Source: an uncultured Candidatus Peribacteria bacterium
GTDB taxonomy: Bacteria > Patescibacteriota > Gracilibacteria > BD1-5 > UBA2023
Length of the DNA: 64,000 nt
Assembly: GCA_964482035.1 (NCBI GenBank)
Contig: CAYZVC010000004.1
Span: 19,572-83,571, forward strand
Direction of reading: 5' to 3'
Shown here: positions 10,681-29,285 of the stretch, piece after piece
Layout: each line of letters begins with the position of its first letter
Position numbering within the stretch: position 1 is the stretch's first letter
Translations under genes and position numbers: made by a program
Notes under the pieces: model-generated
Database searches by the model: none
What the model saw: only the letters and a program-made list of their open reading frames with translations
What the model was told of the DNA's origin: nothing

Positions 10681-10706
10681 ATTCTCGATGATTGGGGATT
10701 GGTAAG

Positions 10707-11240: not shown

Positions 11241-11242
11241 TG

Positions 11243-11780: not shown

Positions 11781-11826
11781 ACAAAAACAAAATCCCCGGC
11801 GCCCTTTCGGGAGACGGGGATTTTTG
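11781..11826 (-). terminator. intrinsic (bidirectional) terminator
   Basis: Stem ATCCCCG / CGGGGAT flanked by an A-run and a T-run, just downstream of the surface-protein gene. Confidence 0.6.
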
Positions 11827-11839
11827 AACTCTTGGGGAA

Positions 11840-13552
11840 TTATCCGCGGAGGCCGAAGCGGCGGCGGGTAATGAAGAACCCGATACCGAGCGCGAGGGAG
11901 AGAAGCGCGAGAACCTGGGCCGGTCCGGTCTGGACCTTGGTGGCTTCGGCGTAGTCGGCGGATTCGGTAGTAGCGTCGGAACAGACGGCCTTGACGGCGA
12001 AGTCTTCGTACTTGACGGCGTCCTTGGCGAGGTGGACGGTGTAGGAGGTGACCTTCACGTTTTCCACGAGGACGTAAGCACCGGTGGAATCCTTCTTATA
12101 GACGTTGTAGCTGAGGGCTTCCGGGATGGCATCCCAGGAGAGGACGCTCTGGTCGTCGGACTTGGCGACCTTGAGGCCGGAGACGTTGGCGATGGAACAG
12201 GTTCCGGCGGAGTTGAGAGCGATGTCTGCGGTGAAGACGTCGGATTCGGTAGCGGTGATCGGGGATCCGGCTACGTCGAGTGCGGCGATCTTGAAGAAGT
12301 ACTTGCCCGGTTCGAGACCGTCGACGTACCACTTATAGGTGGAGCCGGAAGCGGAAGCGCCGGTGCCGGTGAAGGCGATTCTGGACTTTTCGAAGGTGAT
12401 GGATTCCTTGGTGAGGGCGCCGGAGTCGGTGCCGTAGGAGAACTTGAACTTGGAGACGGATTCTACCGGGTTCACGACGTCGAAGGTGAAGGTGACGCGC
12501 TTGTCGCCGGATTCGATCTTCACGTTTTCGTACGCCATCTTCGGAGCTTCGAGGACGGTAATGGTTTCCGCGGCGGTCTTGACGGTCTTCTTTCCGAGGT
12601 CGGACGTGAGGGTCACGTCGATCGGGTAGGAACCGGAAGCGGTAGGAGCGGTGAGGGTGCCTACGTAGACGCCTTCGGAGGTTCCGCCGACGGTTACGTT
12701 ACCGGCGGTGACGCCGGAGGTCTGTTCTTTGAAGACTTCCACGCTGTCGCCGAGGGAAACGGAAACTTCCTTGAGCTTCGGTTCTGCGGTGACGGTGACG
12801 TTGAGGACGGCTCCGGACTTGACGGTCTTGCCTTCCTTCACGGTGATCGACTTGAACGCCGGGCCCTTGTCGGCAGCGGCCTTGAAGGAGATCTTTCCGG
12901 AGGTTCCGGCTTCCTTGTCGGAACCGTCGAGGACCTTGATTTCGAGAACGTTGTTTTCTTCGGTGATGCCCTTGAGCTTGTAGAGGATGGCGCCCTGGTC
13001 GTCGGACTGGCCTTCGCCGGTCTTGGTGCCGTTGAGGTAGACCTGGAACTTGGAGTTCTTCTTGGTGGTACCCACGACGTCGGTTTCGGCGCCCGAGATG
13101 GTGCTGCCGGATTCCGGTGCGGTGACGGTGACGGCTTCCTTGCCGGAAACGCCCGGTCCTACGTCGCCTTCGGTGACGTTGACCTTTGCGGTGCCTTCGA
13201 CCTTGTCGTCGTCGATGTCGATGACGGAGACGGTCATGTTACCAACCTTGGAGAATGCGAGACCCTTCGAGAAGGTCTTGGCGCCCTGGTCTGCGGCAAC
13301 GAAGGTGTAGCCTTCGGCGTACGGGAGGGTGGCCTTGGAGTCGTTGTCGACGGTGACGTAGACGGTGCCGGCGTAGTCGGCGACGTTGCCTCCGTCCTTA
13401 TCGAGGGCCTTGACGGTGAGGTCGAGAGCCTCGCCGACCTTGGCGGACTGGTTTACGGTAAGCGAGAACTTCGCAACCTTTCCTGCAGCGAACACGGCCG
13501 GGTGAGGAAGGAGGAAGGCGAGGGAGAGGAGGGCGGCAAAAAGACGTTTCAT
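11840..13552 (-). CDS. secreted cell-surface protein with Ig-like/FN3-like repeats and a C-terminal anchor signal
   Basis: Signal peptide MKRLFAALLSLAFLLPHPAVFA; beta-rich T/V/G/K repeats; FN3-like LSWDAIPEALSYNVYKK; C-terminus QTGPAQVLALLSLALGIGFFITRRRFGLRG (helix plus Arg cluster); no TGA. Confidence 0.8.
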   Translation of the reverse strand: MKRLFAALLSLAFLLPHPAVFAAGKVAKFSLTVNQSAKVGEALDLTVKALDKDGGNVADYAGTVYVTVDNDSKATLPYAEGYTFVAADQGAKTFSKGLAFSKVGNMTVSVIDIDDDKVEGTAKVNVTEGDVGPGVSGKEAVTVTAPESGSTISGAETDVVGTTKKNSKFQVYLNGTKTGEGQSDDQGAILYKLKGITEENNVLEIKVLDGSDKEAGTSGKISFKAAADKGPAFKSITVKEGKTVKSGAVLNVTVTAEPKLKEVSVSLGDSVEVFKEQTSGVTAGNVTVGGTSEGVYVGTLTAPTASGSYPIDVTLTSDLGKKTVKTAAETITVLEAPKMAYENVKIESGDKRVTFTFDVVNPVESVSKFKFSYGTDSGALTKESITFEKSRIAFTGTGASASGSTYKWYVDGLEPGKYFFKIAALDVAGSPITATESDVFTADIALNSAGTCSIANVSGLKVAKSDDQSVLSWDAIPEALSYNVYKKDSTGAYVLVENVKVTSYTVHLAKDAVKYEDFAVKAVCSDATTESADYAEATKVQTGPAQVLALLSLALGIGFFITRRRFGLRG

Positions 13553-13669
13553 ATGAGTGGTCCCTGGTATAAATAAGGTATTTTCGTCCTATACGTCCCG
13601 ATATTATCGGAAAAACCCGCCTTTGAAAAAGGATTGCCCTTTACAAATGGCAATTGTATTTCGTAAGTA

Positions 13670-14779
13670 TTAATCCGACTCAAACCCTGCCGAATAGGCA
13701 AAGGAAAATCGCCCCATCGAGAATCTATTTACGACCTCATCGGAGACATTTTGTCAAGCAATGATGAAATCTTTGTCGGCAACGCGTTTCAACACAAGAT
13801 CGGAGCGGTGCGGGTCGAGTTCGGAGAAAAGGTCGTCGAACAAGAGCACGAGCGGCTTACCGCCCTTTTCGATGAGAAAATCCGCGGCGATGAGCTTGAG
13901 GGCGTAGAGCAGGGATTTGTTCTCCCCTCTCGACAGGTAGTCTTCCGACCGGATCTCGCCGGAAGGCAGTACGACCGTAAGTCCGAAGTCGTCCAAGTGC
14001 GGGCCGACGTAGGTATGGCCGAGCACCACGTCGCGGTCGCGGTTTTTGGCGAGGTAGGCGGAAATGCTGCCTTCGACATCGGCTTCGTCGGTTTTGGTCT
14101 GGTAAACGAAGCGGACTTCGTATTTGCCGTCGAGGAGCGAGGAGATGTCGGAAGAGCGCGAGCGCACGTATTCGACGAAGCGCATCCTATAGCGGAAATA
14201 TTCGGCGGCTTTGGCGGTGAAAAGCGGATCCCATACGGAAAGATCGCCGGCCTTGGCCTCCCCTTCAGAAATCTTCTTGAGCAGGGCGTTGCGGTTCTTG
14301 AGGGCGGCGGAATAGTCTTTTTTCACTTTGGCGAACTCCGGAAACGCGAGGGAAACCGGCTCGTCTAAAAAGTCGCGGCGGAGCGAAGGGCCGAGATAGA
14401 GCACGTTCATCTCTATGGGCGAAAAGAGCATCGCCCGGACGGGAAGCTTGGAAAGGTAGTTCGCGCGCGAGACGTTTTCGCCCTGGATGGCGAACGAGAC
14501 GGCCTTCTTCTCGGTATCGCAGGAAATGCGGAACTCGTATTCGAGACCGGCGGGGTTTTCGAGCTTGGCGCGTACGAAAAACGCGCCCTCGAAACCGGCG
14601 GCGAGCTCGGTGGCGCGCTTGCCGGGCGGGAGGGCGCCGTTCAAAGCGAAATAGGCGGCTTCGAGAAAATTGGTTTTTCACGAACCGTTGGGACCGCAAA
14701 CGGCGGTCCGCCCGTGGAGGGGAACCGCCGTTTCGGAGTGGTTTTTAAACCGGTAGCAGGCGATCTCTTTGACCCGCAT
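13670..14779 (-). CDS. recF: DNA replication and repair protein RecF
   Basis: MRVKEIACYRFKNH...VCGPNGS-G-KTNFLEA with the Walker A Gly encoded by TGA 14678-14680; second TGA at 13754-13756, then 27 more codons to TAA 13670-13672; ATG overlaps the gatC stop (TAATG). Confidence 0.85.
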
Positions 14780-15075
14780 TACCCCATGATGTTAGGGATG
14801 GCAATCTGGTCGGCCACCACGCGCTGCGGCGAGCGGGAGAGAAGCTCTTTGCGGGTGGGGTCTTTCTTTTCCTTGACCACGTCCTCGCGGAGCGGAAGCA
14901 CCGAAGGGAACGTGGGTTCGATGCCGGCGAGCGATTCGGCGGGCACCGAGGCGAGCACCTCGACGTAGTCGACCACCGAGGAAAGGTTGGTGCGGTACTT
15001 TTCGAGCTCTTCGGCCGACGGCGACAGGCGCGAGAGTCGGGCGATGTGGGCGATTTGTTCTTGCGTGAGGGACAT
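14779..15075 (-). CDS. gatC: Asp/Glu-tRNA amidotransferase subunit C
   Basis: MSLTQEQIAHIARLSRLSPSAEELEKY...PLREDV, 98 aa. Confidence 0.9.
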   Translation of the reverse strand: MSLTQEQIAHIARLSRLSPSAEELEKYRTNLSSVVDYVEVLASVPAESLAGIEPTFPSVLPLREDVVKEKKDPTRKELLSRSPQRVVADQIAIPNIMG

Positions 15076-15083
15076 TTTTCGGT

Positions 15084-15482
15084 ATGCTTCAGGACAATTT
15101 AGAGCCCGAACATCCTATCGGTTCGATGGAAAAAATCAACGCGAACCTCCTCGCCAAAATCCGCACCGCCGCATTTCCGGACGAGCTCTCCGCCGTTGCC
15201 GTGCGCCTTTCCGTCGCGAAAAACGTTTTCATCGTTTCCGCGAGCCTGTATTTTTCGTTCTACCTGTTCGCCGTCGGCGGGTTCGAACCGTCGATCACCG
15301 GCCCCATCGCCTACCTCACCTATCCGGCCTTCCTCTTGGCCACCTACGCGTTCGCTTACGAACTCGTGAACTACGGCGTGAAAGTCTACGCCGAGAACAT
15401 GGGATTCCTCCGCTACATCGCCCTGGGCGTTTGCGGTTCGATGTTCGTCTTTGGTACCGTAGTTCATTTCTGGCCGTCCTAA
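15084..15482 (+). CDS. hypothetical membrane protein
   Basis: Intact 132-aa ORF with 3-4 hydrophobic helices; start uncertain. Confidence 0.55.
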   Translation: MLQDNLEPEHPIGSMEKINANLLAKIRTAAFPDELSAVAVRLSVAKNVFIVSASLYFSFYLFAVGGFEPSITGPIAYLTYPAFLLATYAFAYELVNYGVKVYAENMGFLRYIALGVCGSMFVFGTVVHFWPS

Positions 15483-15493
15483 TCCGCACTCCC

Positions 15494-16066
15494 ATGAAAA
15501 AATCCCGTCTCCTCGCATTGGCCGCCATCGCCGCGGCGCCGTTGTTCTTCGCTTCTTGCGGCAGCACCTCGACCGACACCGCGTCGCTCACCACTTTCAA
15601 GGGCGAAGGGTTCTCCATCGACGTTCCCAAGAGCTGGATCGCCAAGGAATCGAAAGACATCCCCACCCCGAAGAACGGTTCGGTAGCGCTCGCCATGACC
15701 TCGGCGGACATTTCGTCGGGCTTCGCGAACAACATCCTCATTCTCAAAGACACGCTCAATGCCGCCGAAAACGGCGAAAAGATGACCTCGAAGAAGTACT
15801 CGGTAGTCAACCAGGCGCTCACTACCGGAAAGTACGAGGAATATACCAAGATCGACGAGAAGGAAATCACCTACCCCGACGCCGACGTCTCCAACCTCTA
15901 CGTCTTCGAAGCCAAGTACAACCGCGACACCCCCAAGAAGCGTTTCGTGCAGACCGCCAAGATCTGCGACAACAAGGTCTACCTCGTCACCATCGGCATC
16001 GAACTCAACTCGGGTTCGACCTCGAAGTACGAGAACCTCGCCAAGAGCTTCCAGTGCGCTAAGTAG
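15494..16066 (+). CDS. lipoprotein, function unknown
   Basis: MKKSRLLALAAIAAAPLFFAS-C-GS lipobox; hydrophilic mature part; TAG stop. Confidence 0.75.
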   Translation: MKKSRLLALAAIAAAPLFFASCGSTSTDTASLTTFKGEGFSIDVPKSWIAKESKDIPTPKNGSVALAMTSADISSGFANNILILKDTLNAAENGEKMTSKKYSVVNQALTTGKYEEYTKIDEKEITYPDADVSNLYVFEAKYNRDTPKKRFVQTAKICDNKVYLVTIGIELNSGSTSKYENLAKSFQCAK

Positions 16067-16121
16067 CCAAAATCGCTTGATATCCGGGGATTTTCCCTAT
16101 AATGGCCGGGCTAATCCGCCT

Positions 16122-16195
16122 GGCGCCCTGGTAGAGCGGTTATACAGCGGCCTGCAAAGCCGTGGAGAGCGGTTCGACTCCGCTGGGTGCCTCCA
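16122..16195 (+). tRNA. tRNA-Cys (anticodon GCA), CCA encoded
   Basis: Acceptor GGCGCCC/GGGTGCC, anticodon arm GCGGC-CTGCAAA-GCCGT, T arm AGCGG-TTCGACT-CCGCT, discriminator U73 (Cys identity element), then CCA. Confidence 0.85.
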
Positions 16196-16206
16196 AACTG
16201 ATTCTG

Positions 16207-16238
16207 AAAACCTCCTCGTGTAAACGGGGAGGTTTTTC
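16207..16238 (+). terminator. intrinsic terminator after tRNA-Cys
   Basis: AACCTCC...GGAGGTT stem followed by TTTTT. Confidence 0.6.
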
Positions 16239-16583
16239 TGAAGCAGAATTCGGGATTCCCGATGGAGTCGAATAGAGGGTCGAGCGAGCCATGGATAGGC
16301 TTCTTGCGTACTGGGAATGGGTTGGCGAGCGAAGAGGGCGTGCCTAGTATGGCACGCCCGACCCGGCCCGTCTCCCGGAGCGGAGCCGGCAGGTGGAGCG
16401 TGAGGGAACGATGACTGGAGCCCATGTCGGATATACGAAAGAAAATCTAAGAAATACTCATGAAAAACAATTTTGATGCGAGCTCGGATAAGGTATACTC
16501 CGTCCGCTTTGCATAAAGGAGAAAGGCTATTCCCGCTTCGTATGAAATCTGGGAATGTCCTGTCGCAATTCTTTCAAATTTCC

Positions 16584-18926
16584 ATGGACAAAAGAAATCT
16601 CTCGGAATCCGACATTTGCTCAAAATTCATCACGCCGGCCCTTCATGAAGCCTCTTGGCAAGAATCCCAGATTCGCCGGGAGGTTTCTTTTACGAAAGGG
16701 CGGATTAAAGTGAAATGAAAAACCGTTTCTCGCGGGGAGACAAAGCGCGCGGATTACATCCTGCACCATGCGAACCATCTCCCGATAGCCATCGTAGAAG
16801 CCAAAGACAACTGCCATTCCATCGGGGACGGTATGCAACAGGCTCTCGGTTATGCAGAAACGCTCGACATTCCGTTCGTGTATTCATCAAACGGCGACGG
16901 CTTCCTTGAGCACGATAGGACGAAAAAAACCTGAACGGTCGAACGGGAACTTCGCATGGACGAATTCCCCACTCCCGACGAGCTGTACCGCCGTTACCGG
17001 GTCGCCAAGGGGTTCGATGAAGAAATCGAAAAAACGGTAATGGAGCCGTATTACGAGGACGTTAGCGGAAAGGGTCCGCGCTATTATCAGCAAATCGCCA
17101 TCAACAGAACAATCGAAGCAGTCGCGAAAGAACAGGATCGTATCCTCCTCGTCATGGCGACCGGTACTGGAAAAACGTACACCGCTTTCCAAATCATCTG
17201 GCGTCTCTAGAAAGCGCGCAAGAAAAAACGAATCCTCTTCCTTGCGGACAGGAACATCCTCGTCGACCAGACGATTACGAACGATTTTAAACCGTTCGGC
17301 GATAAAATGGCTAAGATCGAGAACCGCAAAGTAGATACTTCGTACGAAATCTACCTCGCCCTCTACCAAGGCCTCACCGGCGGTGAAGAGGACAAGAACG
17401 TCTTCAAACAGTTCTCGCCGGGCTTTTTCGACCTCATCGTCATCGACGAGTGCCACAGGGGCAGCGCGAGGGAAAACAGCGAATGGCGGGCCATTCTCGA
17501 CTATTTCAAAGGCGCTACACAAATCGGTCTTACCGCGACCCCGAAAGAGACTGAAGACGTATCGACGCATACGTATTTTGGAGACCCTATTTATACATAT
17601 TCGCTCAAACAGGGCATAGAAGACGGTTTTCTTGCACCGTACAAAGTGGTTCGCGTCTGAATGGATGTGGACGAAGGCTGGAGACCTTACAAAGGGCAGC
17701 TCGATTATTACGGCGCCGAGATTCCGGACAAAGTATACGAGCTTGGGGATTTCGACCGGAACATCGTCATCCGGGAGCGTACCGAAGCCGTTGCCAAGAA
17801 AATCAGCGAGTATCTCAAAGCGACAGACCGATATTCAAAAACCATCGTCTTTTGCGTGGATATCGACCATGCCGAACGTATGCGCCAAGCCCTCGTGAAC
17901 GAAAACGCGGACGAGGTCGCGAAGAATCCGAAATACGTAATGCGCATCACGGGCGATAACGAAGAAGGCAAAATGGAGCTCGACAATTTCATCGATCCGA
18001 AAGAACGATACCCCGTCATCGCCACGACCTCGAAACTCCTCACCACCTGAGTGGACGCGCAGACGTGCCGGGTTATCGCCCTCGATGCCATCATCAACTC
18101 GATGACGGAATTCAAGCAGATCATCGGTCGCGGAACCCGCATCAACGAAACCTACGGCAAATACTACTTCACCATCCTCGACTTCCGTAAGGCGACGAAC
18201 AAGTTCGCGGATCCAGATTTCGACGGCGAACCCGTCGTAATCTACAAACCCAAACCCGACGAACCGGTCGACGGCGGCGATGTCTGAACCGTTTGAGACG
18301 AAGACGATGGAAACGGCGGATGAACCGTAATCATCGGGGACGGTACGGGAGGATGAGCCGGTGGAGGACAGAAGAAGATCATGGTCCGCTGAGTGCCCGT
18401 GAGTGTTTCCCAGGAACGGGTCCAATACATCGGACCGGACGGCAAACTCATTACCGAGAGTCTCAAGGACTACTCGAAAAAGAACATCCTCTCGGCATAT
18501 GCGAGCCTAGACGATTTCCTGAACGAATGGAACCACGTCGAACAGAAGCTCGCCGTAGTATCCGCATTGGAAGAAAAGGGCGTATTCTTCGAGGACATGC
18601 AAAAGGAAGTCGGACAAGATTACGATCCGTTCGACATGGTGTGCCACCTGGCGTACGACCGTCCGCCGCTCACTCGCAAACAACGGGCGGACAAAGCGAA
18701 AAAATCCGACTATTTCTCCAAATACGGGGAACAGGCGAAAGAAGTGTTGAACATGCTTCTCGAAACATATGCGGACCGTTGAATCGGTGCGATAGAAGAC
18801 ATGGGCATTCTCACCGTCAGTCCGCTCTCGCGCCTTGGAAAACCCGTAGAAATCGTCACGCTTTTCGGAGGAAAGGCCCAATACAAGGCAGCACTTAGAG
18901 AGCTCGAAGCCGCTATTTACCAATAA
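16584..18926 (+). CDS. hsdR: type I restriction enzyme R subunit (HsdR), carrying one in-frame TAG (possible pseudogene)
   Basis: Pieces 16473-16718, 16956-17210, 17307-17660, 17661-18050, 18051-18287 and 18393-18782 are all in one frame; PD-(D/E)x[29 protein letters not shown] (TGA), EcoEI-R-like C-terminus; about 10 TGA=Gly; TAG at 17208-17210 in [20 protein letters not shown]. Confidence 0.85.
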
Positions 18927-18943
18927 GAAATCCTAAAGGAACC

Positions 18944-20371
18944 ATGTCTAATATTTCCGCGATCGTAAAATCCATTCAAGACACTATGCGCAAGGATGCC
19001 GGGGTCGACGGCGACGCCCAGCGCATCGGCCAAGTATCTTGGATGCTCTTTTTGAAAATTCTCGACGATCAAGATCGTAACCTCGAAGTCATTCTCGACG
19101 ACTACGTTTCCCCCGTGCCCGAGGATTGCCGTTGGGGCAATTGGGCAGCCAACAAAGAAGGGATGACGGGTGACGAGCTCGTGGAATTCGTTAACGAAAC
19201 CCTCTTCAAGAAACTCCGCAGCCTCCCTTATGACGCGAATCGTCCGATGACCGGGATTATCCGCGGCGTTTTTGAGGACTCGTTCAATTATATGAAATCG
19301 GGAACGCTCCTTAGGCAGGTAATCAATAAGATCGGCGAAATCGACTTCAGCAAGAAAACCGAACTCCACGTCTTCAACGACATCTACGAAAAAATCCTGA
19401 GCGATCTCCAATCCGCGGGGAACGCCGGGGAATACTACACCCCCCGTTCGGTTACTCAGTTTTTAGTAGACATGGCGGATCCGAAACTCGGCGAGACCGT
19501 TCTTGACCCTTCCTGCGGCACGGGCGGCTTTCTTACTTGCGCCATCGAGCATATCCGCAAGAACGGCGTACATGAACGCAAGGACGAAGAAACTCTTCAA
19601 AAATCCATCCGCGGAATAGAACTCAAACAGCTTCCGCACCTTCTCGCAACGACCAATCTCATTCTCCACGGTATCGAATGCCCCTCGGGACTCCGTCACG
19701 ACGACACACTTTCGCGTCCGCTCAAAGACTACGGCCCCGAAGATGCGGTAGACGTAATCGTCACGAATCCGCCCTTTGGCGGACAGGTAAAACCCGGCAT
19801 CATTCACAACTTTCCAAGTCAGTTCCAGACTGCGGAAACGTCGTTTTTATTCATGGTGCTCATCATCAATCTGCTTAAATCCGGAGGACGTGCCGGTGTG
19901 GTATTGCCGGATGGCTTCCTCTTCGGCGAAGGCGTGGCCACCCGCATCAAGGAAAAACTCCTTTCCGACTGCAACCTCCATACCGTCGTCCGCTTGCCGA
20001 ACGGGGTATTCAACCCGTATACCGGCATCACGACCAACCTCCTCTTCTTCACGAAAGGCGAACCGACGAAGGAAGTCTGGTATTTCGACCACCCGCTTCC
20101 GGCGGGTATCAAGAATTACAGCCGATCGAACCCGCTCCGTATCGAGGAATTCGATTTGGAAAAATCCTGGTGGAACGACCGGAAGGAAACCGGAAACGCC
20201 TGGAAGGTCGGCATCGACGAAATCAAGGCGAGAGATTACAATCTCGACATTAAGAACCCGAATCGGAAGGAAGAGAAAGAAATCTTGGATACGAAAGAAC
20301 TCATCGACGCTATCGAGGCGAATTTCAAGGAAGCGGCGGCAATTTTGGAGAAAATTAAGACGAGCGTGTAA
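18944..20371 (+). CDS. hsdM: type I R-M N6-adenine DNA methyltransferase subunit M
   Basis: Intact 475-aa ORF; GEYYTPR, DPSCGTGGFL, NPPFGG motifs; no TGA. Confidence 0.95.
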   Translation: MSNISAIVKSIQDTMRKDAGVDGDAQRIGQVSWMLFLKILDDQDRNLEVILDDYVSPVPEDCRWGNWAANKEGMTGDELVEFVNETLFKKLRSLPYDANRPMTGIIRGVFEDSFNYMKSGTLLRQVINKIGEIDFSKKTELHVFNDIYEKILSDLQSAGNAGEYYTPRSVTQFLVDMADPKLGETVLDPSCGTGGFLTCAIEHIRKNGVHERKDEETLQKSIRGIELKQLPHLLATTNLILHGIECPSGLRHDDTLSRPLKDYGPEDAVDVIVTNPPFGGQVKPGIIHNFPSQFQTAETSFLFMVLIINLLKSGGRAGVVLPDGFLFGEGVATRIKEKLLSDCNLHTVVRLPNGVFNPYTGITTNLLFFTKGEPTKEVWYFDHPLPAGIKNYSRSNPLRIEEFDLEKSWWNDRKETGNAWKVGIDEIKARDYNLDIKNPNRKEEKEILDTKELIDAIEANFKEAAAILEKIKTSV

Positions 20372-20372
20372 T

Positions 20373-21695
20373 ATGGAAATGCAAACGGTAAAGATAGGCG
20401 ATCTGCTCAAAAGGCGAAAAACGCCAGTACCCATTCTTGACGATAGCCTTTACAGGCGCGTGACCATTCGGATGAATAAACAAGGGGCTGTAAAGAGGGA
20501 TGAGGTTCTTGGAAAGGACATCTGAACAAAACAACAATTCCTCGTCAAGGAAGGCGACTTCCTGATATCCAAAATCGATGCGAGAAATGGGGCTTTCTGA
20601 CTGGCCTCAAAAGATCTCGACGGCTCAATTATTACGTGAAGCTTTCTCGCATTTGAGATTAATACGGGGATCGTCGACCGGGAATATTTCATTTCTTTTG
20701 TCAATTCCTGAGAGTTTCAGGACATATGCAGAAGAAACAGTTCGGGCACGACGAACAGAAAAAATGTCGATGAGACGAAATTTTTAGATGCCGAAATCAC
20801 GGTTCCCGTTTCGATCGAAGATCAGAAAAGGATCGCGAACAAAGTGGGCCACTTGAACGGAATGATGGTTGCCGCAAGGAGCGAGCTGGAGGCTGCGGGC
20901 GAATGAATCAAAAACCTCCGCTCCTCCATCCTCCAAGACGCCATCCAAGGAAAACTCGTGCCGCAAAACCCTTCCGACGAACCGGCCAGCGTACTTTTGG
21001 AGCGGATACGGAAAGAGAAGGAAACGCTCGCGAAAACCGGAAAGATCAAGAAGCAAAAGAACCTCCCGCCGATTTCGCCGGAAGAGGTGCCTTTCGAGTT
21101 ACCGAAGGGGTGGGCATGGGTGAGGCTATGAGAAATACTCACCTACGTTCAACGTTGACCATCCGCTATTTACGCAGAACTGAGTGAAGTTGAGATAATT
21201 AATCAAAAATGCATCCAATGGAGTGGATTGGATTTACACGTAACGAAATACTACAAGACGGATCTAATATCAAAGTTGGATGAATGTCGTTTTATTAGAA
21301 GTAACGACATACTTTTAAACTCAACCGGAACATGAACTATTTGAAGGTGCCTTTTGGTGAATCAAATAAAAGAAAGAACATATATTGCCGACAGTCACGT
21401 AACCATACTAAGATCGTACATTTCAAACAGTTACATCAATCTATTCCTACGAACCCCGAGGATCCAAGGTCTCATAAACGGGGTTGGCTGATCCACGAAT
21501 CAAATAGAATTGAGCAAGGCCATGATTGAATCCCTCCCGATCCCCGTACCACCCATGTCGGAACAGATTCGTATTATCGCAAAAGTTAGTGAACTAATAT
21601 CCGATTGCGACAAGTTGGGAAAAACAGCCGAACGATCATTAAAAAACAGCGAAAAATTACTGGAAAGCAGTTTGGTCAAAGTCTTTAAAAACTAA
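20373..21695 (+). CDS. hsdS: type I R-M specificity subunit S
   Basis: Starts 1 nt after the hsdM stop; 10 in-frame TGAs fall on G in SSGTTNRK-type, VRL-G-EI, NSTGT-G-TI-G-R and G-STNQIELS contexts; two TRDs plus the conserved central and C-terminal helices. Confidence 0.9.
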
Positions 21696-21701
21696 TGCCA
21701 T

Positions 21702-23690
21702 GTGCCCGTGTCAACCAATTTCGTTCTTTGAACTTCCGACGAATTCATAAAGCGCAAGTACTGCAAGGATATTGGGAAAGCCATATCTGAACTGGTTTGG
21801 AATTCGCTAGATGCCAATGCGACTAAGGTAAAGATCTCTTTTGGAAAGGGGTGATTGTTTTGAGAGGGCGAATATTCAGTAATTCGAGACGTCATCATCG
21901 AGGACAACGGTGATGGGATTGACCTGATTGACGTCAATGGTGCATTCACGCACTTATGAAAATCATCGAAAGTTAAATGAATGAAGAATAGGAGCGGTCG
22001 TTTCGTGCACTGAAAGAACGGCGAATGACGGGCCTATACGATAGGACTTTGAGGAAAAACGACCTGGGAAAGCCGGTATTTAGATAAGATTCAGGATAAA
22101 GCCTTCTCGTTTTCGATCTCAAATTCCAGCTCATTAAGAAATTTTTCCGTATCGGATCAAATCGAAACCTCGAACAAAGAGACCTGAGTTACGGTGAAAG
22201 TTACCGAAATAAACGATGAGATCGCGAAACAAATCGACCTTAGAAAACTGAAACAGGTGCTTCTGCTTGAATTCGCACATTATCTCAAGACTTATGAGAA
22301 GGATGGCATCGAAATCGAGGTAGATGGCGAAATTCTCAATATCTCTGACGCACTGGCTTCCTCACCAAAAGAAGTCGATTTTTCCGCAAGAAATCCAACT
22401 GACAATAACTCATATCAGTTCAAGCTCGCCATATACCATTGGAAAGATAAATGAGTCCATGCCCGTTATTTCGTAAATTCGGATTTTTCAATCATACACG
22501 AAGACGGCAATACCTGAGTCACTAGAAAGGACTTCTGACATTCCATCTACATTTCCGGAGCCGTGATCGAGGAAAAGGCGAACGTTTTTCAACTTTTCAC
22601 CTCCGAACCTTTCTTCGCCCATATCAGCGATGCTGCGAAGGAAAAAATAGAAGGGTATTATCGCGAGTATTTCAAAAAGGAGATCGCCCCGACGATAGAA
22701 GCCTTCAAAAAGGCTGGAGTGTACCCTTATAAGGACACGCCTGATACGCCGGTGGAGAAGGACGAACGCATGGTCTTCGACGCATGCTTATTTGCGATAT
22801 CCTCCAATTCCGAAAAATTCCACAAGGATAGCGCCGAGTCTAAAAAAATAATGCTCAACCTACTGAAGGAGGCCATAGAGAAGGATGCCACTTCTATCAT
22901 TCCAATCTTCCAGAGCGTCCTGAATCTTCCACAAGACGAGATAAATGATTTGATCGAGCTCATAGATGAATACTCTTTATCCTACGTTATCAAACTGTCG
23001 AGAATCATTACCGACAAGCTCTCTTTGATCGAGGAATTGGGTCTTCTTATTCAAGATCCCGAATTTAAAGGCAAAACCCTTGAAAGGAAACATCTCCATA
23101 GGATACTCGAACGAGAGCTGTGGATTTTCTGAGATGGGTATACCGAATGAACGAGCGACAGAACGATGAAGGACGTACTGAAGACGCATATAAGGTTACT
23201 CGGAAGAGAAGACCTGATCGACGAAGCAGCACTATCCTCCGTTTCCAACGATAGGCCAGATCTTTTTATTTACAGGCAGTACCCGCAAACAAGGGAAAGC
23301 CACTTTGAACACCTTGTGGTCGAACTTAAAAGACCGTCGTTGAAACTTACGACAAATGAGCTTTCACAAATCGAAGACTATGCCGATCAGGTGTCTGAAG
23401 ATGCAAGGTTCGACAAGGAATCAGTCAAGTGGAAATTCATCCTAATCGGAGATGACATGGATTCCCAAGTCAGACGGAGAATCAATCAAAAAGGTTTTCC
23501 CGAAGGATGTTCAATGTTACAGGATAACTATGAAGTCTGGGTATATAGTTGGGCGAAACTCTTGCAAAATCTTCGCTGGAAATACCAATTCCTCAAACAG
23601 AAACTGGATAGCGAATCTTCGCAGAATCCGAGGGATTTCAAATACTTGAAGAGAACGTTTCCCGAGATTGTGGATGCGGTAAATCCTTAA
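21702..23690 (+). CDS. GHKL-type ATPase fused to a Shedu/DUF4263-like PD-(D/E)xK nuclease domain (candidate defence protein)
   Basis: One frame (GTG 21702 to TAA 23688-23690) with about 14 TGA=Gly; Bergerat motifs AISELVWNSLDANA and EDNGDGID, then G-KSSKVK-G...GRFVH-G-KNGE-G-R; C-terminus LHRILERELWIF-G-DGY...RPDLFIYR...HLVVELKRP...QIEDYADQV. Confidence 0.7.
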
Positions 23691-23712
23691 TTCATCAATA
23701 ACCGCTTATCAA

Positions 23713-24036
23713 ATGGCAACAAAAAAGGAAATGGTGGACAAGGCACTATCCCATGTAAAGAATTTCGAATCGATCAAAGGACTTGTAACCATCGTGGAAC
23801 TGAAGGATGGAAAAACTGTAGTCAACCAGCGCGCCATGTATCGATGATCGAAATACACTAAAAGGGATTGGTGTTTCAGAACAGTCAGTGCAGTTATCAG
23901 AAATAATCCGTTCGACGAGACTCGTCCGAGCGTTTTCCAGATGAATCTGGACATTTCTAATATCAAAAGTCTAAGGGTGATTGCTAGCGATCAAGAGATT
24001 CGAGGCAATTCAACCGGCATCTCTGAGCGTAAGTAA
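23713..24036 (+). CDS. small hypothetical protein (107 aa)
   Basis: ATG 23713 to TAA 24034-24036 with one in-frame TGA (23845-23847); missed by the ORF track because it is split; competes with antisense ORF 23709-23966. Confidence 0.4.
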
Positions 24037-24054
24037 GACATATGCGACAACTCA

Positions 24055-24088
24055 AAAACCCCCTTTTCTTTTCGAGAAGGGGGTTTCA
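24055..24088. terminator. bidirectional intrinsic terminator
   Basis: AACCCCCTT / AAGGGGGTT stem flanked by an A-run and a T-run, between convergent genes. Confidence 0.65.
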
Positions 24089-24107
24089 GTAATGAGGGCT
24101 CGCTATT

Positions 24108-24641
24108 TTACACCGGAATGCTCATGGAACCATTACCAGATTCCCGAACAAATCTAACCATTTCTGTTTTAGTCTCGTTAAACTCGATATACAGGCCAAA
24201 TTTATACCCGAGTTGAACGGTGTACTCCGTTATCTTTCGTTTATCAAAATCCCGATAGGTCTCGCCTGATTTACGAGTGGCATCAGCATATTTTTTCTTC
24301 TTAACCTCTATAATAAGCAAATTTTTTTGATTCCCAGTCCTGTCATGCACTATTATGTCTGGAAATACTGTCGTTCACTTTTCATCGGTAGAATCGGTAT
24401 CTTCGACATCCAAATTAAGGCGCTTGGCCATAAAATGGCCATCTTCATCAACCTGGTACATTTTGTTGTATTCGCAATCGATGTCATACCCAGGGAAAAG
24501 ATCGACTATAAATTCCGCTAATTTATGGGTAATCGACCTTTCGTTCACATCCTGGCATAACAAAAATTTCTCTTTCACGGTAAATTGCCGAACACGGTCT
24601 TCTACGTCTTCCCAAGTAAATTCCACATCTTGTGATGTCAT
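24108..24641 (-). CDS. PD-(D/E)xK nuclease-fold protein (177 aa)
   Basis: Pieces 24108-24350 and 24375-24641 are in frame and joined by TGA; ERSITHKLAEF...VFPDIIVHDRTGNQKNLLIIEVKKK (D...ExK pattern). Confidence 0.6.
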
Positions 24642-24714
24642 GCGTTGATGTTCAATAGAGATAGAGCGAACACAATCCAGCTAACGATTAATCAATCCAG
24701 GATACTGGCAGCCA

Positions 24715-25591
24715 CTATTTTGGATTGATTATAACTTTGACGGCCTTTCACGGTTTTGATTGCCCCTCCAAATCTTGGATAAGTCACTTTTTATTCCGAA
24801 CGTAATCCCCTTTGTCGTAAATAAAGACCAAAAGGGTGCGATAACTCGGGTGCTGGTTGTACCTGACTATGTCAATGGCGATTTGTTCACCCAACTCTTT
24901 ATCTTTCAATTTCTCAGAAGCCATTTTCGTCTCAATGATGATCCCCTCTTCGGGCAAGACCATATCTATTCTCGAATTTCATCATGCGCTACTTGGCGAA
25001 TAGTCCTCCGCTCTCACATCTCAATAAAACATTTTCAATACAGATCTCAGTAAATCCTGAACATCATATTCGTCACTTATGGACAAGGTCTCCCTATTTG
25101 CATGCCTATATCTCAGCTCTTGAGCGCATTTGTGAAATCATTCGCATAAACTAGCAATATGCGCAAGGGCGTCCTTTTCCTCATTCTCGTAAACTTCTTC
25201 GTTAATAGGGATAAGATCGGCCTTGTTTAGCAAGATTTCCAATATGTATCTTCTTCTTTATGTCGTCCTTAAGGTCTTTGATCTTCTCGGATAGGTAGAT
25301 TTCGCGGTATCATCATACAAACACCATTCAAATCGATTCGTATTCCTCAAGATACGGATTCTCTTGATAGCTGTAACTCACCTTAAGAAATTCCCTGTTC
25401 CAATGGTCCCATTTTGAGTATTTTTGTTTCAATTCTTCAAGCTCCTCCTCTCGACGAATCTCTTCGTCGTATAAATCACGTCAGGAGTTGATTCGATCTT
25501 TGATAGTCTGCTTGAATTTCTCCTTTGGGATTATAAGTCTTGCGGGTCAATACATCTCAGAAACCGTCGGTGCCGTCCTCACTTTAGCCAT
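24715..25591 (-). pseudogene. coiled-coil plus PD-(D/E)xK nuclease gene split over two overlapping frames (frameshifted, or two genes)
   Basis: Frame A 25591-25202 (MAKVRT...KKKIHIGNLAKQGRSYPY*) overlaps frame B 25242-24715 (LEILLNKADLIP...DEYDVQDLLRSVL...SRIDMVLPEEGIIIETK...LLVFIYD); skipping one base near 25243 would give ...KKKIHIEILLNKADL... Confidence 0.45.
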
Positions 25592-25874
25592 ATGATTTCG
25601 CTTTAGTCATGTAATTAGGACCAATGTGATTCATTTTTACCGGTCGCATTTAGGTAAACACACTTTACCTAAAAAATCTGAAATAACACACGGTACTGAA
25701 TCAGCGCTATAAAGCCTTCTTGGAATTCTCCACGAAAGTTCGAAGATTACGACCCTTTAAGACCTCCAAGAACAATCAAAATCCCCCTGTCCGCAAGGAT
25801 GGGGGGATTTTCGTGCCAAAGCGCCATAATCGAGTAAAATCCATAGTAGGAATACGATTCCCTCTCTTCCGAAC

Positions 25875-26447
25875 ATGCCATTTTCCAAAGCATTCCCCGA
25901 TACATGGAACGAAGCTGTTGCCGAATTGTCTGCCTCGATGCGTTTCTCCGATTTTCCCTACAATCGAAATATTTCGTTTTTCAAAGCTTTCGTAAATGGA
26001 CGGGAATTTGAAATCCCTCAAAGGATCACGTTCGATCAGTTGGACGATACGCCCTTGGATAAGGAAAGCGCTACGATTTACGCTTGCATGCTCTCTCGAC
26101 ACGTCGACGGACACCTGAGGGGAGAATGAGCGAAACTCCTTGCTCTCCACGAAGAGGACTGGATCATGCCATACGTTTTGCGCTTAATCGGAGAATACGT
26201 ACCGGGAATATCGGCCGTACTTCTCCAAGGCATTGGAAGATTCAATCCGAAAGAATTGAACTCCTTCCTGAAAGCCAACCCCGAGCTCTACGAACTCGTC
26301 CAAAGGCAGGCAATAAGCTATCACAACGAATACTACCGAGAAATTCCACTGACGGAATATCCGCCATTTTTAGCATTGAAACGCATTTCCGAGGTTGGAA
26401 AAATACCGCTTTCCCGAAAAGTTTTCTCAGTAAACAACATCAATTAA
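25875..26447 (+). CDS. hypothetical protein (190 aa)
   Basis: Pieces 25875-26129 and 26166-26447 are in frame and joined by TGA 26127-26129; TAA stop. Confidence 0.55.
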
Positions 26448-26466
26448 GACCCCCCTCATTTCCCAT

Positions 26467-26496
26467 TTGACTTAAAGCACTTTAAGTTATTAGACT
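26467..26496 (+). promoter_or_regulatory. MerR-type promoter/operator (TTGACT, dyad, TAGACT)
   Basis: TTGACT 26467-26472 and TAGACT 26491-26496 with an 18-nt spacer containing the dyad ACTTAAAG-CA-CTTTAAGT (26470-26487), just upstream of the merR-family gene. Confidence 0.5.
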
Positions 26497-26522
26497 GTGC
26501 GCAGGTATTTCCGAAACCTCCC

Positions 26523-26963
26523 ATGCGCCGATATTCCATCAAAGAAACCGCCGAGCTCAGCGGACTCCCCGAAAGCACCCTCCGCTACTACGAAACCATG
26601 GGTCTCATCGGCCCCATAGAGCGCGACGGGAGCAGCAAGCACCGCACGTACGGCGAAGACGACGTGAACCTCATCGTGGGGATCGCGTGTTTGAGCGCGA
26701 CCGGGATGTCGATCGCGGACATGCGGAAATACCTGGACAACTTCCGATCCGGAAAGGACGCCGCCAAAGAACAGAAGTCGCTTTTGGAAACGCAGAAGAA
26801 ACTCCTTGCGAAAGAAGCCGAATCCGTCGTGCTCCGGCAAAAATACGTAGACGTGAAAATCGCCTACTGGAGCGCCGTGGAAGCCGGAGACGAAGCCGCG
26901 AAGAACGCCGCGTCCGAAAAGGCGTGGCAACTGGCGGCGAAGCTGAAGAATTCGAAAAAATAA
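26523..26963 (+). CDS. MerR-family transcriptional regulator (AdhR/NmlR-like)
   Basis: [32 protein letters not shown]; conserved Cys in [12 protein letters not shown]; coiled-coil C-terminus. Confidence 0.9.
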
Positions 26964-26974
26964 TCCCCCACCCC

Positions 26975-28012
26975 ATGATTCAGACAAAATCCCGCGCCGT
27001 TTTCGGCGCTACCGAAGCCTTCGTACCCTACGCGCTCGAACGCCGCGAAGTCGGAGAAAAAGACGTGCTCATCGAAATCAAATACGCCGGCATCTGCCAC
27101 AGCGACATCCATAACGCCCGCGGCGAATGGGGGCGTTCTAAGTACCCGATGGTTCCCGGCCACGAAATCGCCGGAATCGTTACGGCCGTAGGTTCTGAAG
27201 TCACGAAACACTCCGTGGGCGACCGCGTGGGCGTTGGCTGCATGGTGGATTCGTGCCGCGAATGCGGCCACTGCCACGACGGCGAAGAACAGTTCTGCAA
27301 GGCCTGCGTATACACCTACGGGGGCGTCGGAAAAGACGGAACCCCCACCCAAGGCGGATATTCGAGCCATATCGTAGTGACGGAGGATTTCGTAGTGCGC
27401 ATCCCCGATTCTATTCCGCTCGACAAAGCCGCTCCGCTCCTTTGCGCGGGCATTACCACGTACTCCCCGCTAAACCGCTGGAACGCCGGCGTCGGAAGGA
27501 AAGTGGCCGTCGTGGGCATGGGCGGACTCGGGCACATGGCCGTAAAGATCGCGAGCGCCATGGGCGCCGAAGTCACCGTCCTCTCGCAGTCGCTCAGCAA
27601 AAAGGAAGACGGCATTCGCTTCGGGGCGAAAGACTACCGCTCCACGAAAGACCCGTCGACCTTCGCCGAACTGAAGGGAAAATTCGACCTCATCCTCAAT
27701 ACCGTCAGCGCCAAAATCGACGTGGACGCCTACCTTTCGCTTCTCGCGGTGGACGGCTCGCTCGTCAACGTGGGAGCTCCGGCGGAAGCCCTCTCCGTCA
27801 ATGTTTTCTCGCTCATCATGCAGCGCAAATCGTTCTCGGGGTCGCTTATCGGCGGAATCCGCGAAACGCAGAAAATGCTCGATTTCTGCGCGGAACACGG
27901 CATCGCTCCGGAAATCGAAACCATCTCTGCCGACCAAATCGACGCCGCCTACGAACGGATGCTGAAATCCGACGTGAAATACCGCTTCGTCATCGATACG
28001 GCGACGTTGTAG
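26975..28012 (+). CDS. Zn-dependent NAD(P) alcohol dehydrogenase (YahK/AdhA cinnamyl-ADH type)
   Basis: [40 protein letters not shown] motifs; 345 aa, no TGA; TAG stop. Confidence 0.9.
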
Positions 28013-28042
28013 GGATTATTCAAGAATCCCTACCGCTCCATA

Positions 28043-28624
28043 TTACCGCAAGAAAAACGCTTCCCGGGAGTCGCCGGTAAGGGCGTCCACGTAGTCGTAT
28101 TTGCGCGCGCGGTCTCAGAACTTCGACAGCACCGCCTTTGACCGCAAGTTGTCTTCGTTGCAACAAGCCGAAAGCCCGGACAATCCCCAAACTCTCTGAA
28201 CGTGCCTCAGCCATTGCGCGATCAGCGCCGTTCAGAGCCCCTGGTCGCAGTAGGCGTCGAAAAGCTCGATGCCGAGATTTCAAAGTCGGCGCTCGTCCGA
28301 CCTGTTGCGGAACTGGCGGTGGGTCAACGTCCCGATCCACTCGCCTTCGCGGGTCACACAATATTCGTCGCTCTCCCGTATGCCGTATTCCTCGGTGACC
28401 TTCCTTCGCAATTCTTCCTGCGCGGTTTCGGAACAGAGATATCAAACGTAGTACTCCACGTTTTCTTTGACGAGATCGACGGTTACGCCGGCTTTTTTCC
28501 AATTCGAAAATATGTCGTTCACGGCCAGGGATCCGGCAATCCTTTCTGCATTCTCGGGCGCGAATCGAATGAGGGAGAAGTCTCCGCTGAGACGCATACG
28601 GCTTTCGTTCATCCTGTTTGCCAA
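28043..28624 (-). CDS. GNAT-family N-acetyltransferase
   Basis: Frame continues through 4 TGAs below ORF 28442-28624; motif A GIELFDAYCDQGL-G-TALIAQWL with the G encoded by TGA; TAA 28043-28045. Confidence 0.75.
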
Positions 28625-28868
28625 AGTGGGTATTGAACTTACTTATAATAATCGAGACACGTTTGTCAAAACGTGCGCGCCATTGGACTGTCGAGCGAAC
28701 TCGTGTACTATGGACGCGATATCCGTAAATATCCCCCGCATGGGGCTCGCGCTCCAGAATCAGCCGAAGGAGCCATCGAACTTTCCACTCCGGTCGGAAA
28801 TCGAATTTGCCAAGAGCGTATCGGGAAAAGTCCAACGGATCGTCGGATAACGTAACCTTTTTCGGAAC

Positions 28869-29285
28869 ATGCCGCCCGCAAAAACCCCCCATACGAAGCC
28901 CGCGGTTAAGAAAACCCTGAGTTTCCGCGGCTTCACCCTCGCCGAACTCATCGTCGTCGTCACCATCCTCGCCATTTTGGCGACGATAGGTTTTTTGGCG
29001 CTCTCCGGCTATACGCAGGACGCCAAGGACGCCGGCGTGAAAACCAACGTCCGTTCGGTCTATACCGCAATCACCGCGGAAAGCGCGGTATCCGGAAATT
29101 CGCCCCGGTACTACGTCGTCCACGATCCGGACGCGGCCCTTTCGGGCGGAATCGTCTTCGTCAGCGGAAACCCGAACGTCCTTACCGGAGGCGACTGGAA
29201 TACGCCCGGAACGAACTATTCGGCGGGCAATCCCGATTACGTGAAGCTGAAGCTGAATCCTGAAAAATTCCGCATCGCTTCGGCG
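28869..29285 (+). repeat. pilin N-terminal module, paralogous copy 2
   Basis: See 7945-8350; similarity stops where the C-terminal domains begin. Confidence 0.7.

Follow-up and report, generated by a model that had tools for sequence, protein, structure and literature searches.

A probable mosaic defence island at the tRNA-Cys gene of a Gracilibacteria-type bacterium predicted to read TGA as glycine

Introduction

Genomic and defence islands associated with tRNA genes are familiar from bacteria that use the standard genetic code. They occupy the 3' end of the tRNA gene, are flanked by a repeat of that end, have an atypical composition, are missing from close relatives, and pack defence modules into a cargo that varies between strains. 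Here, we describe a region that shares these traits in a stretch of 64,000 nucleotides from an uncultured Candidatus Peribacteria bacterium (assembly GCA_964482035.1, contig CAYZVC010000004.1, positions 19,572 to 83,571), hereafter called the window. Its tRNA-Cys gene is followed by a 9.57-kb block, a tRNA-linked defence island or hotspot of a well-known type, which encodes a type IB restriction-modification (R-M) system, a GHKL-nuclease protein of MORC/MutL-like character and two PD-(D/E)xK proteins. The block differs from the described islands in that no integrase has been retained, the repeat is only 7 nt long, host and donor both appear to use code 25, with in-frame TGA codons read as glycine, and a mosaic join lies inside hsdS.

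With the type IB (EcoAI/EcoEI-family) systems, the locus shares full-length HsdR, HsdM and an HsdS with two target-recognition domains (TRDs), in the order R-M-S; unlike them, it has an hsdR cut by a TAG codon and a second TRD whose composition does not match the rest. The homologous Gracilibacteria cassettes on contigs L012 and L013 have an upstream XRE-type controller gene, and that of the window is without one. Iyer, Abhiman and Aravind reportedly linked prokaryotic MORC/paraMORC-like GHKL ATPases to restriction systems in 2008. The GHKL protein found here resembles these ATPases in its N-terminal Bergerat fold, its position right after an R-M operon and its C-terminal D...ExK motif, and Foldseek matches of its family are to MORC, MutL and Hsp90. 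It differs from the MORC, BbrUII and HgiDII proteins in scoring far below the BbrUII cutoff, in having a nuclease fold predicted from a motif, and in having homologues that are stand-alone genes. PD-lambda-3, a system that acts by abortive infection, is attributed to Vassallo et al. 2022 in PMC13190303 and PMC10952713, the latter of which lists it with a PD(D/E)XK domain. Gene g5 of the block shares with it the profile of the A component and a PD...ExK motif; no other component was detected, and the neighbour of g5 is a frameshifted DpnII/MboI-type gene. Finally, code-25 prophages of Gracilibacteria and Absconditabacteria have been described, with dense in-frame TGA codons that fit code 25 only (PMC10746230), and code-25 mobile DNA is thus not new. 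The block is likewise TGA-rich mobile DNA, but it has no phage structural genes or integrase, carries a defence cassette, and contains an hsdM free of TGA.

What this locus adds is an insertion resolved to the base, with an empty site and a displaced terminator. In addition, conserved TGA positions tie the cargo to other recoded genomes, in a transfer that would span genomic guanine-plus-cytosine (GC) contents from 23% to 56%. The case should be useful to test whether codon reassignment confines gene flow to a recoded clade. It also shows defence islands of the candidate phyla radiation (CPR) forming at tRNA hotspots and decaying as they do in standard-code bacteria, and it leaves current concepts unchanged.

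Results and Discussion

A 9.57-kb cassette at the 3' end of tRNA-Cys

The tRNA-Cys (GCA) gene, the integration target, was located at 16122-16195 on the plus strand by ARAGORN and by the Rfam tRNA model (52.9 bits). Contig L001, from a Patescibacteria metagenome-assembled genome (MAG), is 93% identical at the nucleotide level to positions 9264-16196 of the window, and L002, from a Candidatus Gracilibacteria MAG, is 79% identical; homology of both stops at the end of the tRNA. In L001, the tRNA is directly followed by 'GAACAATCAAAATCCCCCTGTCCGCAAGGATGGGGGGATTTT', and the identical stretch was found in the window at 25763-25811, with 100% identity over 49 nt (L001 2224-2272 against window 25811-25763). 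This stretch ends in a hairpin, termA (25778-25811, plus strand; -25.1 kcal/mol, z = -5.0), which is the original terminator of tRNA-Cys. The heptamer CCTCCAA is present once in L001 and twice in the window. The left copy (16190-16196, plus strand) comprises the final 2 nt of the acceptor stem together with the discriminator, CCA and a single additional base, and homology to L001 ends at its last position; the right copy (25763-25769, plus strand) lies in the stretch matched by L001. The order is thus tRNA-Cys, CCTCCAA and termA, unbroken, in L001, and tRNA-Cys, CCTCCAA, 9.57 kb, CCTCCAA and termA in the window. Since L001 joins tRNA-Cys to termA and the heptamer is duplicated in the window, the insert was delimited as 16197-25769 (9.57 kb). 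An earlier note on this DNA, made from the sequence alone, had drawn the island from 16122 to 26470 and had seen no obvious repeat of the tRNA 3' end; neither statement holds, as a short repeat exists and the repeat-bounded insert is smaller, with the gene called g8 outside it.

In the window, termA is displaced 9.6 kb from tRNA-Cys and has no upstream plus-strand gene left to terminate. A replacement hairpin for the tRNA was found at 16206-16237 (plus strand; -26.6 kcal/mol, z = -6.9), and a hairpin stands immediately 3' of tRNA-Cys in all the more distant relatives described below. The new hairpin lies within a non-coding leader of 387 nt (16197-16583, plus strand) that has host-like GC and no homology to L001, L012 or L013. 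No Rfam family was found in this leader, and a blastn comparison with the relatives returned only a 31-nt match, in L002. Neither a long direct repeat nor a terminal inverted repeat was seen at the ends of the insert, and no tRNA-like remnant beyond the heptamer was detected before the right repeat (alignment score of 8, equalled by 40% of shuffles). An exact-pattern scan of metagenome contigs for termA gave zero matches, and it also missed the source contig itself. The promoter and terminator consensus scan gave the same counts as shuffled sequences and was left unused; the hairpins were judged by folding.

We also observed the motifs GGAGTCGAAT[A/G]GAGGG and TCTTGCGT near the tRNA-proximal start of the cargo, at 16264-16279 and 16303-16310 in the window and at about 2160-2220 (minus strand) in L001. 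They occur in opposite order in the two contigs, whose cargoes are otherwise unrelated, and Rfam gave no match to them; they may mark an element end or serve in regulation.

The tRNA-Cys 3' end in relatives

The 16197-25769 block is missing from L001, which carries beyond termA an EcoRII-type nuclease and a C5 methyltransferase gene, both with in-frame TGA, and tRNA-Cys of L002 is followed by housekeeping-type genes. Ten more distant relatives (GC 0.26-0.29) were collected through the lipoprotein gene, and the linkage of this gene to tRNA-Cys was found in 7 of the 10. Among them, L021 has an Mrr-type nuclease after tRNA-Cys, and L023 has a large serine recombinase adjoining it, followed by a phage-type AAA_24 ATPase gene. 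In L026, a HlyD-AcrB pair follows the tRNA, and two direct repeats of its last 11-12 nt ((A)GGCACCTCCAA) lie 6.3 and 7.0 kb downstream. From this pattern, the tRNA-Cys 3' end is a recurrent att-like site in the clade, and site-specific integration is thus the most likely origin of the insert, even though the latter is without a recombinase gene. Island status, as proposed in the earlier note, agrees with the absence of the block from a relative of 93% nucleotide identity and with the different genes that other relatives carry beside the tRNA or merR. Collectively, the block sits at a tRNA 3' end, is missing from a close relative, ends in a distal direct repeat and deviates in composition; an integrase of its own was not found.

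Three side observations concern this site. The serine recombinase open reading frame (ORF) of L023 (10651-12198, minus strand) is antisense to tRNA-Cys and crosses this gene completely before it meets a TAA or TAG, since code 25 does not use TGA as a stop. The repeats of L026 (10725-17710) bracket the 6.3-kb HlyD-AcrB segment and a 0.67-kb segment, neither of which contains a recombinase. The window has AcrB/HlyD-like genes of its own, at 34373-39484.

Reading of TGA as glycine

The host of the window is a Gracilibacteria-type bacterium (Patescibacteria/CPR) of unusually high GC (0.56), and its relatives, found by a GTDB search with the neighbouring RecF protein, are named Candidatus Gracilibacteria or Patescibacteria MAGs. 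When TGA was taken as a stop, the genes of the region fragmented; when it was taken as sense, full-length genes were obtained. Genes were called with a finder seeded on homology-confirmed genes, with TGA read as sense. A codon-usage gene finder trained on long ORFs did not keep sense apart from antisense ORFs in this GC-rich DNA, chose the strand opposite to hsdR, and was replaced. With the homology-seeded finder, in-frame TGA codons were present in core genes all across the window, including the Pfam-confirmed genes for UbiA (9), RecF (2) and a glycine-rich pilin-like protein (15).

To assign the codon, we relied on conserved columns. The GHKL gene (21702-23690, plus strand) has 14 in-frame TGA codons, and in an alignment of 24 sequences 6 of the 14 fell on columns that are glycine in 18-23 of 23 homologues (23/23, 23/23, 23/23, 21/23, 21/22 and 18/23; three columns invariant). 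The mean glycine frequency was 0.475 at TGA columns and 0.054 over all columns, and none of the 14 codons fell on a tryptophan column. In hsdR, TGA stands at conserved glycines at positions 45, 117, 489 and 733, and in g7/g6, the DpnII/MboI-type gene, positions 37, 204, 205 and 270 are glycine in 21-27 of 27 standard-code homologues. Because TGA falls on conserved glycine columns and not on tryptophan columns in these three genes, the host is assigned to translation table 25, a reading drawn from the alignments and in agreement with the literature on the Gracilibacteria clade (PMC6851277, PMC10746230). The glycine meaning that the earlier note had given to the TGA codons of the AT-rich genes is borne out by the same columns. 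ARAGORN found no tRNA-Gly(UCA) in the window, and 64 kb is too little to judge this tRNA or release factor 2.

Compared with contigs L020-L029, the host is a high-GC outlier (GC 0.56, with TGA at 6.9% of glycine codons). Relatives with the lipoprotein-tRNA-Cys synteny have a GC of 0.26-0.29 and very dense TGA, and the share of TGA follows AT content, up to 78% at a GC of 0.23. We also noted that public gene calls for recoded organisms are either fragmented (table 11) or made with table 4, which places tryptophan at glycine positions. This affects database proteins P0030-P0041 and P0151-P0165 and the gene calls in L004, L005 and L008, and such translations distort identity values and family profiles. 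The locus carries the same warning for annotation: table 11 fragments these genes, and table 4 gives tryptophan for glycine.

Composition and a recoded donor

The GC content of the window is about 0.56. It is 0.48-0.53 at 16-21 kb and 0.408-0.430 in the five 1-kb windows at 21-26 kb, each of which lies below every 1-kb window outside 16-27 kb (minimum 0.504). At a resolution of 300 nt, GC falls abruptly near 21.15 kb, stays at about 0.41 up to 25.8 kb, and is back to 0.56 at about 26.45 kb, so that the AT-rich stretch seen by the earlier note at 21.15-26.45 kb was recovered. Codon usage changes along with GC. TGA makes up 6.9% of glycine codons in the core genes of the window (81/1168; GC 0.564), 13.2% in the left half of the insert (16/121; GC 0.514) and 39% in the AT-rich half (31/79; GC 0.414), and the difference between the AT-rich half and the core genes gave p = 1.8e-14 in a Fisher test. 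GC at third codon positions (GC3) is 0.72, 0.63 and 0.47, respectively. The AT-rich half has the codon usage of a code-25 genome of lower GC rather than the host's own; the recoded contigs L010 (GC 0.43), L012 (0.39) and L011 (0.23) have TGA at 23.7% (61/257), 19.5% (85/435) and 77.6% (90/116) of glycine codons.

The nearest homologues of g7/g6 point in the same direction. In database translations, the twelve nearest contain 8-17 tryptophans and 0-9 glycines, an excess of tryptophan over glycine by which TGA-recoded contigs can be told, and standard-code homologues (38-46% identity) contain 1-4 tryptophans and 7-18 glycines. L010 and L011 were checked directly, and the 'tryptophan' residues were TGA codons at the sites used in the window, e.g., SSA-TGA-TGA-NSRID and YDK-TGA-D; the shared sites are glycine in all standard-code homologues. 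Because the nearest homologues of g7/g6 sit in low-GC, TGA-recoded contigs with the same TGA positions, an origin of the AT-rich half in other bacteria that read TGA as glycine, or in their mobile elements, is supported. This is the donor proposed in the earlier note, and the high TGA share of the AT-rich half agrees with it. The direct donor of the GHKL gene was not identified among its homologues (best identity of at most 41%).

A mosaic join inside hsdS

The closest homologue of HsdR (87% amino acid identity) comes from the Candidatus Gracilibacteria MAG GCA_028689065, where the cluster XRE-hsdR-hsdM-PemK-hsdS-AAA_13 lies away from any tRNA. The nucleotide identity between this cassette and the window is 73.6%, from the ATG of hsdR (16584) to the end of hsdM (20358), plus the centre of hsdS (20912-21134). 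The type I module thus circulates among Gracilibacteria of different GC. Homology at the nucleotide level to the L012 and L013 cassettes stops at 21134-21136, where GC falls, and the GC step inside hsdS, at about 21135-21150, is the start of TRD2. Because the GC step and the end of cassette homology coincide at this point, the insert is a mosaic, in which TRD2 and everything to its right come from a separate source of lower GC. The simplest and most likely explanation for the join is recombination within the conserved hsdS centre, the usual route of TRD exchange.

Genes of the type I system

The gene hsdR (16584-18926, plus strand) matched the EcoAI/FtnUII R subunit model NF046051 of NCBIfam with 1176.8 bits, PADLOC REase_I with 1121.5 bits, and Pfam ResIII and EcoEI_R_C; it has 10 in-frame TGA codons. 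The type I N6-adenine methyltransferase gene hsdM (18944-20371, plus strand) matched Pfam N6_Mtase (1.5e-74), HsdM_N and PADLOC MTase_I (685 bits), and contains no in-frame TGA. The hsdS gene (20373-21695, plus strand) matched Methylase_S in two stretches and encodes an intact 440-aa protein with both TRDs and both conserved regions. All three genes match their families over the full length and lie in a single operon, separated by 17 and 1 nt. The five plus-strand genes from hsdR to the orphan described below are spaced by 17, 1, 6 and 22 nt and probably form one operon.

The hsdR frame contains a TAG at 17208-17210 (codon 209), immediately past the Walker A motif, where 24/24 homologues have tryptophan; the same TAG is present in the Logan contig L009. 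Read-through or reassignment of this TAG was ruled out, since TAG ends other genes of the window, e.g., g6, and the column is an ordinary invariant tryptophan. If cut at the TAG, the product would be without motor domains. The hsdR-hsdM-hsdS series that the earlier note had placed after tRNA-Cys is present by profile in all three members, with hsdR broken by the in-frame TAG and only hsdM and hsdS intact. With HsdR cut short at codon 209, the system is probably limited to modification, i.e., modification-proficient and restriction-deficient (r-m+), judging from the reading frames.

As a separate observation, hsdM is TGA-poor in three homologous Gracilibacteria cassettes, with 0/36 glycine codons in the window (18944-20371), 1/32 in L012 (12356-13783) and 2/32 in L013 (2711-4138); pooled over the cassettes counted, TGA makes up 24/199 glycine codons in hsdR and 15/58 in hsdS. 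This low usage could reflect chance, a stronger constraint, or selection for reliable expression of the methylase.

GHKL gene and orphan ORF

The GHKL gene probably starts at a GTG 6 nt past the hsdS stop and is intact. Its product matched HATPase_c_3 (4.4e-13) and phrog_6203 (2.8e-57). The model of the homologue P0001 (pLDDT of 82) gave Foldseek matches to TRAP1, MORC and MutL at E ~1e-11; together with the HATPase_c_3 match, this places a Bergerat-fold ATPase at the N-terminus. The Foldseek search with the whole P0001 model is dominated by the GHKL domain and is uninformative for the C-terminal domain. The latter contains the invariant residues D513, E534 and K536 (D513...E534-x-K536) in a predicted beta-beta-alpha region, only a weak HSDR_N_2 match (E = 0.011), and no fold match specific to it. 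Of the GHKL-ATPase/nuclease fusion read by the earlier note, the ATPase domain was thus recovered by profile, and the C-terminal part is PD-(D/E)xK-like by its D...ExK motif and the weak HSDR_N_2 match. Membership of the BbrUII/HgiDII group was considered and rejected: the match to its model (NF050001; 2.5e-11) covered the N-terminal 190 residues only and reached 42.9 bits, against a cutoff of 550 bits. Full-length homologues, at most 41% identical and mostly standard-code, are stand-alone genes on integrative and conjugative elements, phage-like elements, and contigs bearing an integrase or a serine recombinase, and no conserved partner gene was found in their neighbourhoods. An orphan ORF of 107 aa with one TGA follows (23713-24036, plus strand), which had no Pfam or PHROGs match, and then a bidirectional terminator hairpin (24056-24086, both strands; z = -4.7).

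Minus-strand nuclease genes and the right flank

The gene g5 (24108-24641, minus strand; 177 aa) is intact and of the PD-(D/E)xK type. It matched PADLOC PD-Lambda-3_A (1.9e-24) and, weakly, a TnsA-like N domain (0.0013), and the PD...ExK motif 'FPDIIV...IIEVKK' was read from its sequence. No other PD-lambda-3 profile matched any neighbouring gene. Next to it, g7/g6 (24715-25591, minus strand) is one gene, about 292 aa long, that combines a helical N-domain with a DpnII/MboI-type nuclease domain (DpnII-MboI, matched at 1.7e-44 and at 3.6e-44) and has 12 in-frame TGA codons. It carries a frameshift at about 25245-25260 (minus strand), in a AAGAAGAAGATA stretch, which splits it into two overlapping ORFs and divides the helical N-domain from the nuclease domain. 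The fused reading aligned over 100% of its length, with 53-59% identity, to twelve proteins of 289-296 aa, and the domain REase_DpnII-MboI (PF18742) scored 151.5 bits against a cutoff of 27; the ORF itself is interrupted by the frameshift. The earlier note had counted two PD-(D/E)xK genes and one unknown here; the two nuclease genes are present, and one of them, together with an 'unknown', makes up the halves of this frameshifted gene. The same frameshift is found in the Logan contig L007. Both lesions, the hsdR TAG and the g7/g6 frameshift, are reproduced in the SRR10823754 Logan contigs and so have probably not arisen as errors of one assembly, and the island is partly decaying.

To the right of the insert, g8 (25875-26447, plus strand; 190 aa) gave no match in the family, PADLOC and PHROGs searches. 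The g8 region is strain-variable: in L006, homology to the window does not begin before 26364, and a different gene, AT-rich and containing TGA, is found upstream. To the right of the variable region, the first of the conserved core genes encodes a merR-family regulator (26523-26963, plus strand; MerR_1, 8.6e-16), and a zinc alcohol dehydrogenase (ADH) gene follows on the same strand. L006 has an identical MerR protein, and its merR-ADH DNA is 93% identical to that of the window.

Origin of the island

We consider it highly probable that a cassette was inserted at the tRNA-Cys 3' end of a recoded host, as a two-part mosaic whose AT-rich part came from lower-GC bacteria that read TGA as glycine. 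The 9.57-kb cassette (16197-25769) would have entered exactly at the tRNA end, duplicating CCTCCAA, pushing the original terminator 9.6 kb downstream and supplying a new one. Its left part (hsdR, hsdM, and TRD1 and the centre of hsdS; GC 0.51) would be an EcoAI-type module shared with other Gracilibacteria. The right part (TRD2 and the GHKL-nuclease, orphan, PD-lambda-3_A-like and helical-DpnII/MboI genes; GC 0.41) would derive from lower-GC bacteria with TGA as glycine or from their mobile elements, and recombination within the conserved hsdS centre would have brought the two parts together. Entry was most likely by site-specific recombination at the tRNA-Cys 3' end, with a recombinase that was since lost from the cassette or that acted in trans, the best candidate being a large serine recombinase such as the one beside the same tRNA in L023. 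The earlier note had called the mobility mechanism unclear; the block has no recombinase, and the recurrence of the att-like site in relatives narrows the question. By homology, HsdM2S would methylate a bipartite site set by its two TRDs, an intact HsdR would restrict unmodified DNA, the GHKL protein may be an ATP-driven stand-alone nuclease, and the two minus-strand genes would encode PD-(D/E)xK nucleases, one of them frameshifted.

Several points weigh against this reconstruction. No terminal inverted repeats were found in 16197-26447, and no recombinase or transposase by family, PADLOC and PHROGs searches of its ORFs, in line with the absence of an integrase already noted from the sequence. 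The repeat, at only 7 nt, is short for a classical tRNA att site of a tyrosine integrase, and it could instead be a transposition target duplication or microhomology. Of the empty tRNA-Cys/merR junction that the earlier note had proposed to look for in relatives, the left side is there, with tRNA-Cys joined to termA in L001; no truly empty junction to merR was found, and L001 has other cargo after termA, where its contig ends. Logan contigs from SRR10823754 break at 21071-21073 (L009 corresponds to window 15478-21073 and L007 to 21071-29479), i.e., at the GC step, and the join is spanned by the JGI contig only. SRR10823754 is maybe the same sample as the JGI assembly, and the replicate contigs are not proven independent. 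Lastly, while the insertion, the mosaic structure, the genetic code and the decay of genes are shown by the sequences, we infer the recombinase and the enzyme activities, all functional statements being made by homology alone.

The same breaks would be expected if the AT-rich half were an assembly chimera of two Gracilibacteria populations joined in hsdS, but hsdS is one intact 440-aa protein across the join, identical lipoprotein, HsdM and MerR proteins occur on five contigs of 50-200 kb each, and the tRNA-derived repeat and termA anchor the right end and tie the AT-rich DNA to the locus. We regard a chimera as very improbable; the break may reflect population variants of TRD2. A more serious alternative, possible and yet clearly less favoured by us, is that the cargo was swapped by homologous recombination after DNA uptake, with crossovers in the conserved flanks (to the left, tRNA-Cys and the lipoprotein gene; to the right, merR/ADH) and internally in the hsdS centre, the heptamer being incidental microhomology from an older illegitimate join. 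Such an exchange would account for a block without a recombinase gene, for the different cargo between the same flanks in three relatives of 79-93% identity, and for a GC step that coincides exactly with where the conserved hsdS centre ends, as TRD swapping predicts; type IV pilin-like proteins in the window and DprA in a relative are consistent with DNA uptake. However, the duplicated heptamer bounds the insert base for base and the old terminator is intact, which is the signature of an insertion and not of allelic replacement, and the 11-12-nt repeats of the tRNA end in L026 and the serine recombinase in L023 also speak for site-specific integration.

It is improbable, in our view, that the block is ancestral and was deleted by L001 between the two CCTCCAA copies, with its low GC due to defence genes being under relaxed or special selection. 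A deletion of this kind, between short direct repeats, would yield the 'empty' sequence of L001, and the decay of two genes also counts in its favour. Nevertheless, termA adjoins tRNA-Cys in L001, like the terminators of all distant relatives, and is stranded in the window; no such block is present in L002, L021, L023 or L026; and codon usage (GC3 of 0.47 against 0.72, TGA share of 39% against 6.9%) is too deviant for a long-resident segment. A standard-code donor, or standard-code fragments in which the TGA codons arose after transfer or mark pseudogenes, is extremely improbable. The mostly standard-code GHKL homologues, at no more than 41% identity, are what such a donor has in its favour. 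Against it, the TGA codons lie on invariant glycine columns, the nearest g7/g6 relatives are recoded at the same sites, and a TGA share six times that of the host cannot be produced by host mutation pressure with the GC left unameliorated. Moreover, only with TGA taken as glycine are the ORFs collinear with full-length homologues from one end to the other, and this excludes the standard-code fragments that the earlier note had named as a way in which its reading could fail.

Beyond the insertion of a mosaic cassette at this locus, one may speculate that the tRNA-Cys 3' end (…CCTCCAA) is a dedicated site for small, often integrase-less cassettes, mobilised in trans by serine recombinases and circulating only among bacteria with TGA as glycine, an idea that we consider unlikely at present. 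If true, the TGA codons that are dense in restriction and effector genes, though not in hsdM, would confine use of the cargo to the inside of a code-25 'firewall', and the recoded clade would have a private, code-locked defence mobilome across genomes of 23% to 56% GC.

Other features of the window

A second stretch of lower GC (0.50-0.53) lies at 47000-53000. It contains a gene of 1120 aa (47631-50993, plus strand) with 13 in-frame TGA codons and a weak IstB-like P-loop match, which may be another acquired or defence-type gene. ARAGORN also reported a tRNA-Phe(aaa) at 43715-43783 and a tRNA-Ala(tgc) at 55863-55936 (minus strand), both of which are doubtful, as the Rfam tRNA model at its gathering threshold gave tRNA-Cys only. 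Lastly, two paralogous pilin-like genes, at 7945-9255 and 28869-30203, encode an N-terminal methylation motif and are 74% identical to each other over about 348 nt; a GP38-like match was obtained for the second, which has a poly-glycine tail that stems in part from 15 TGA codons.

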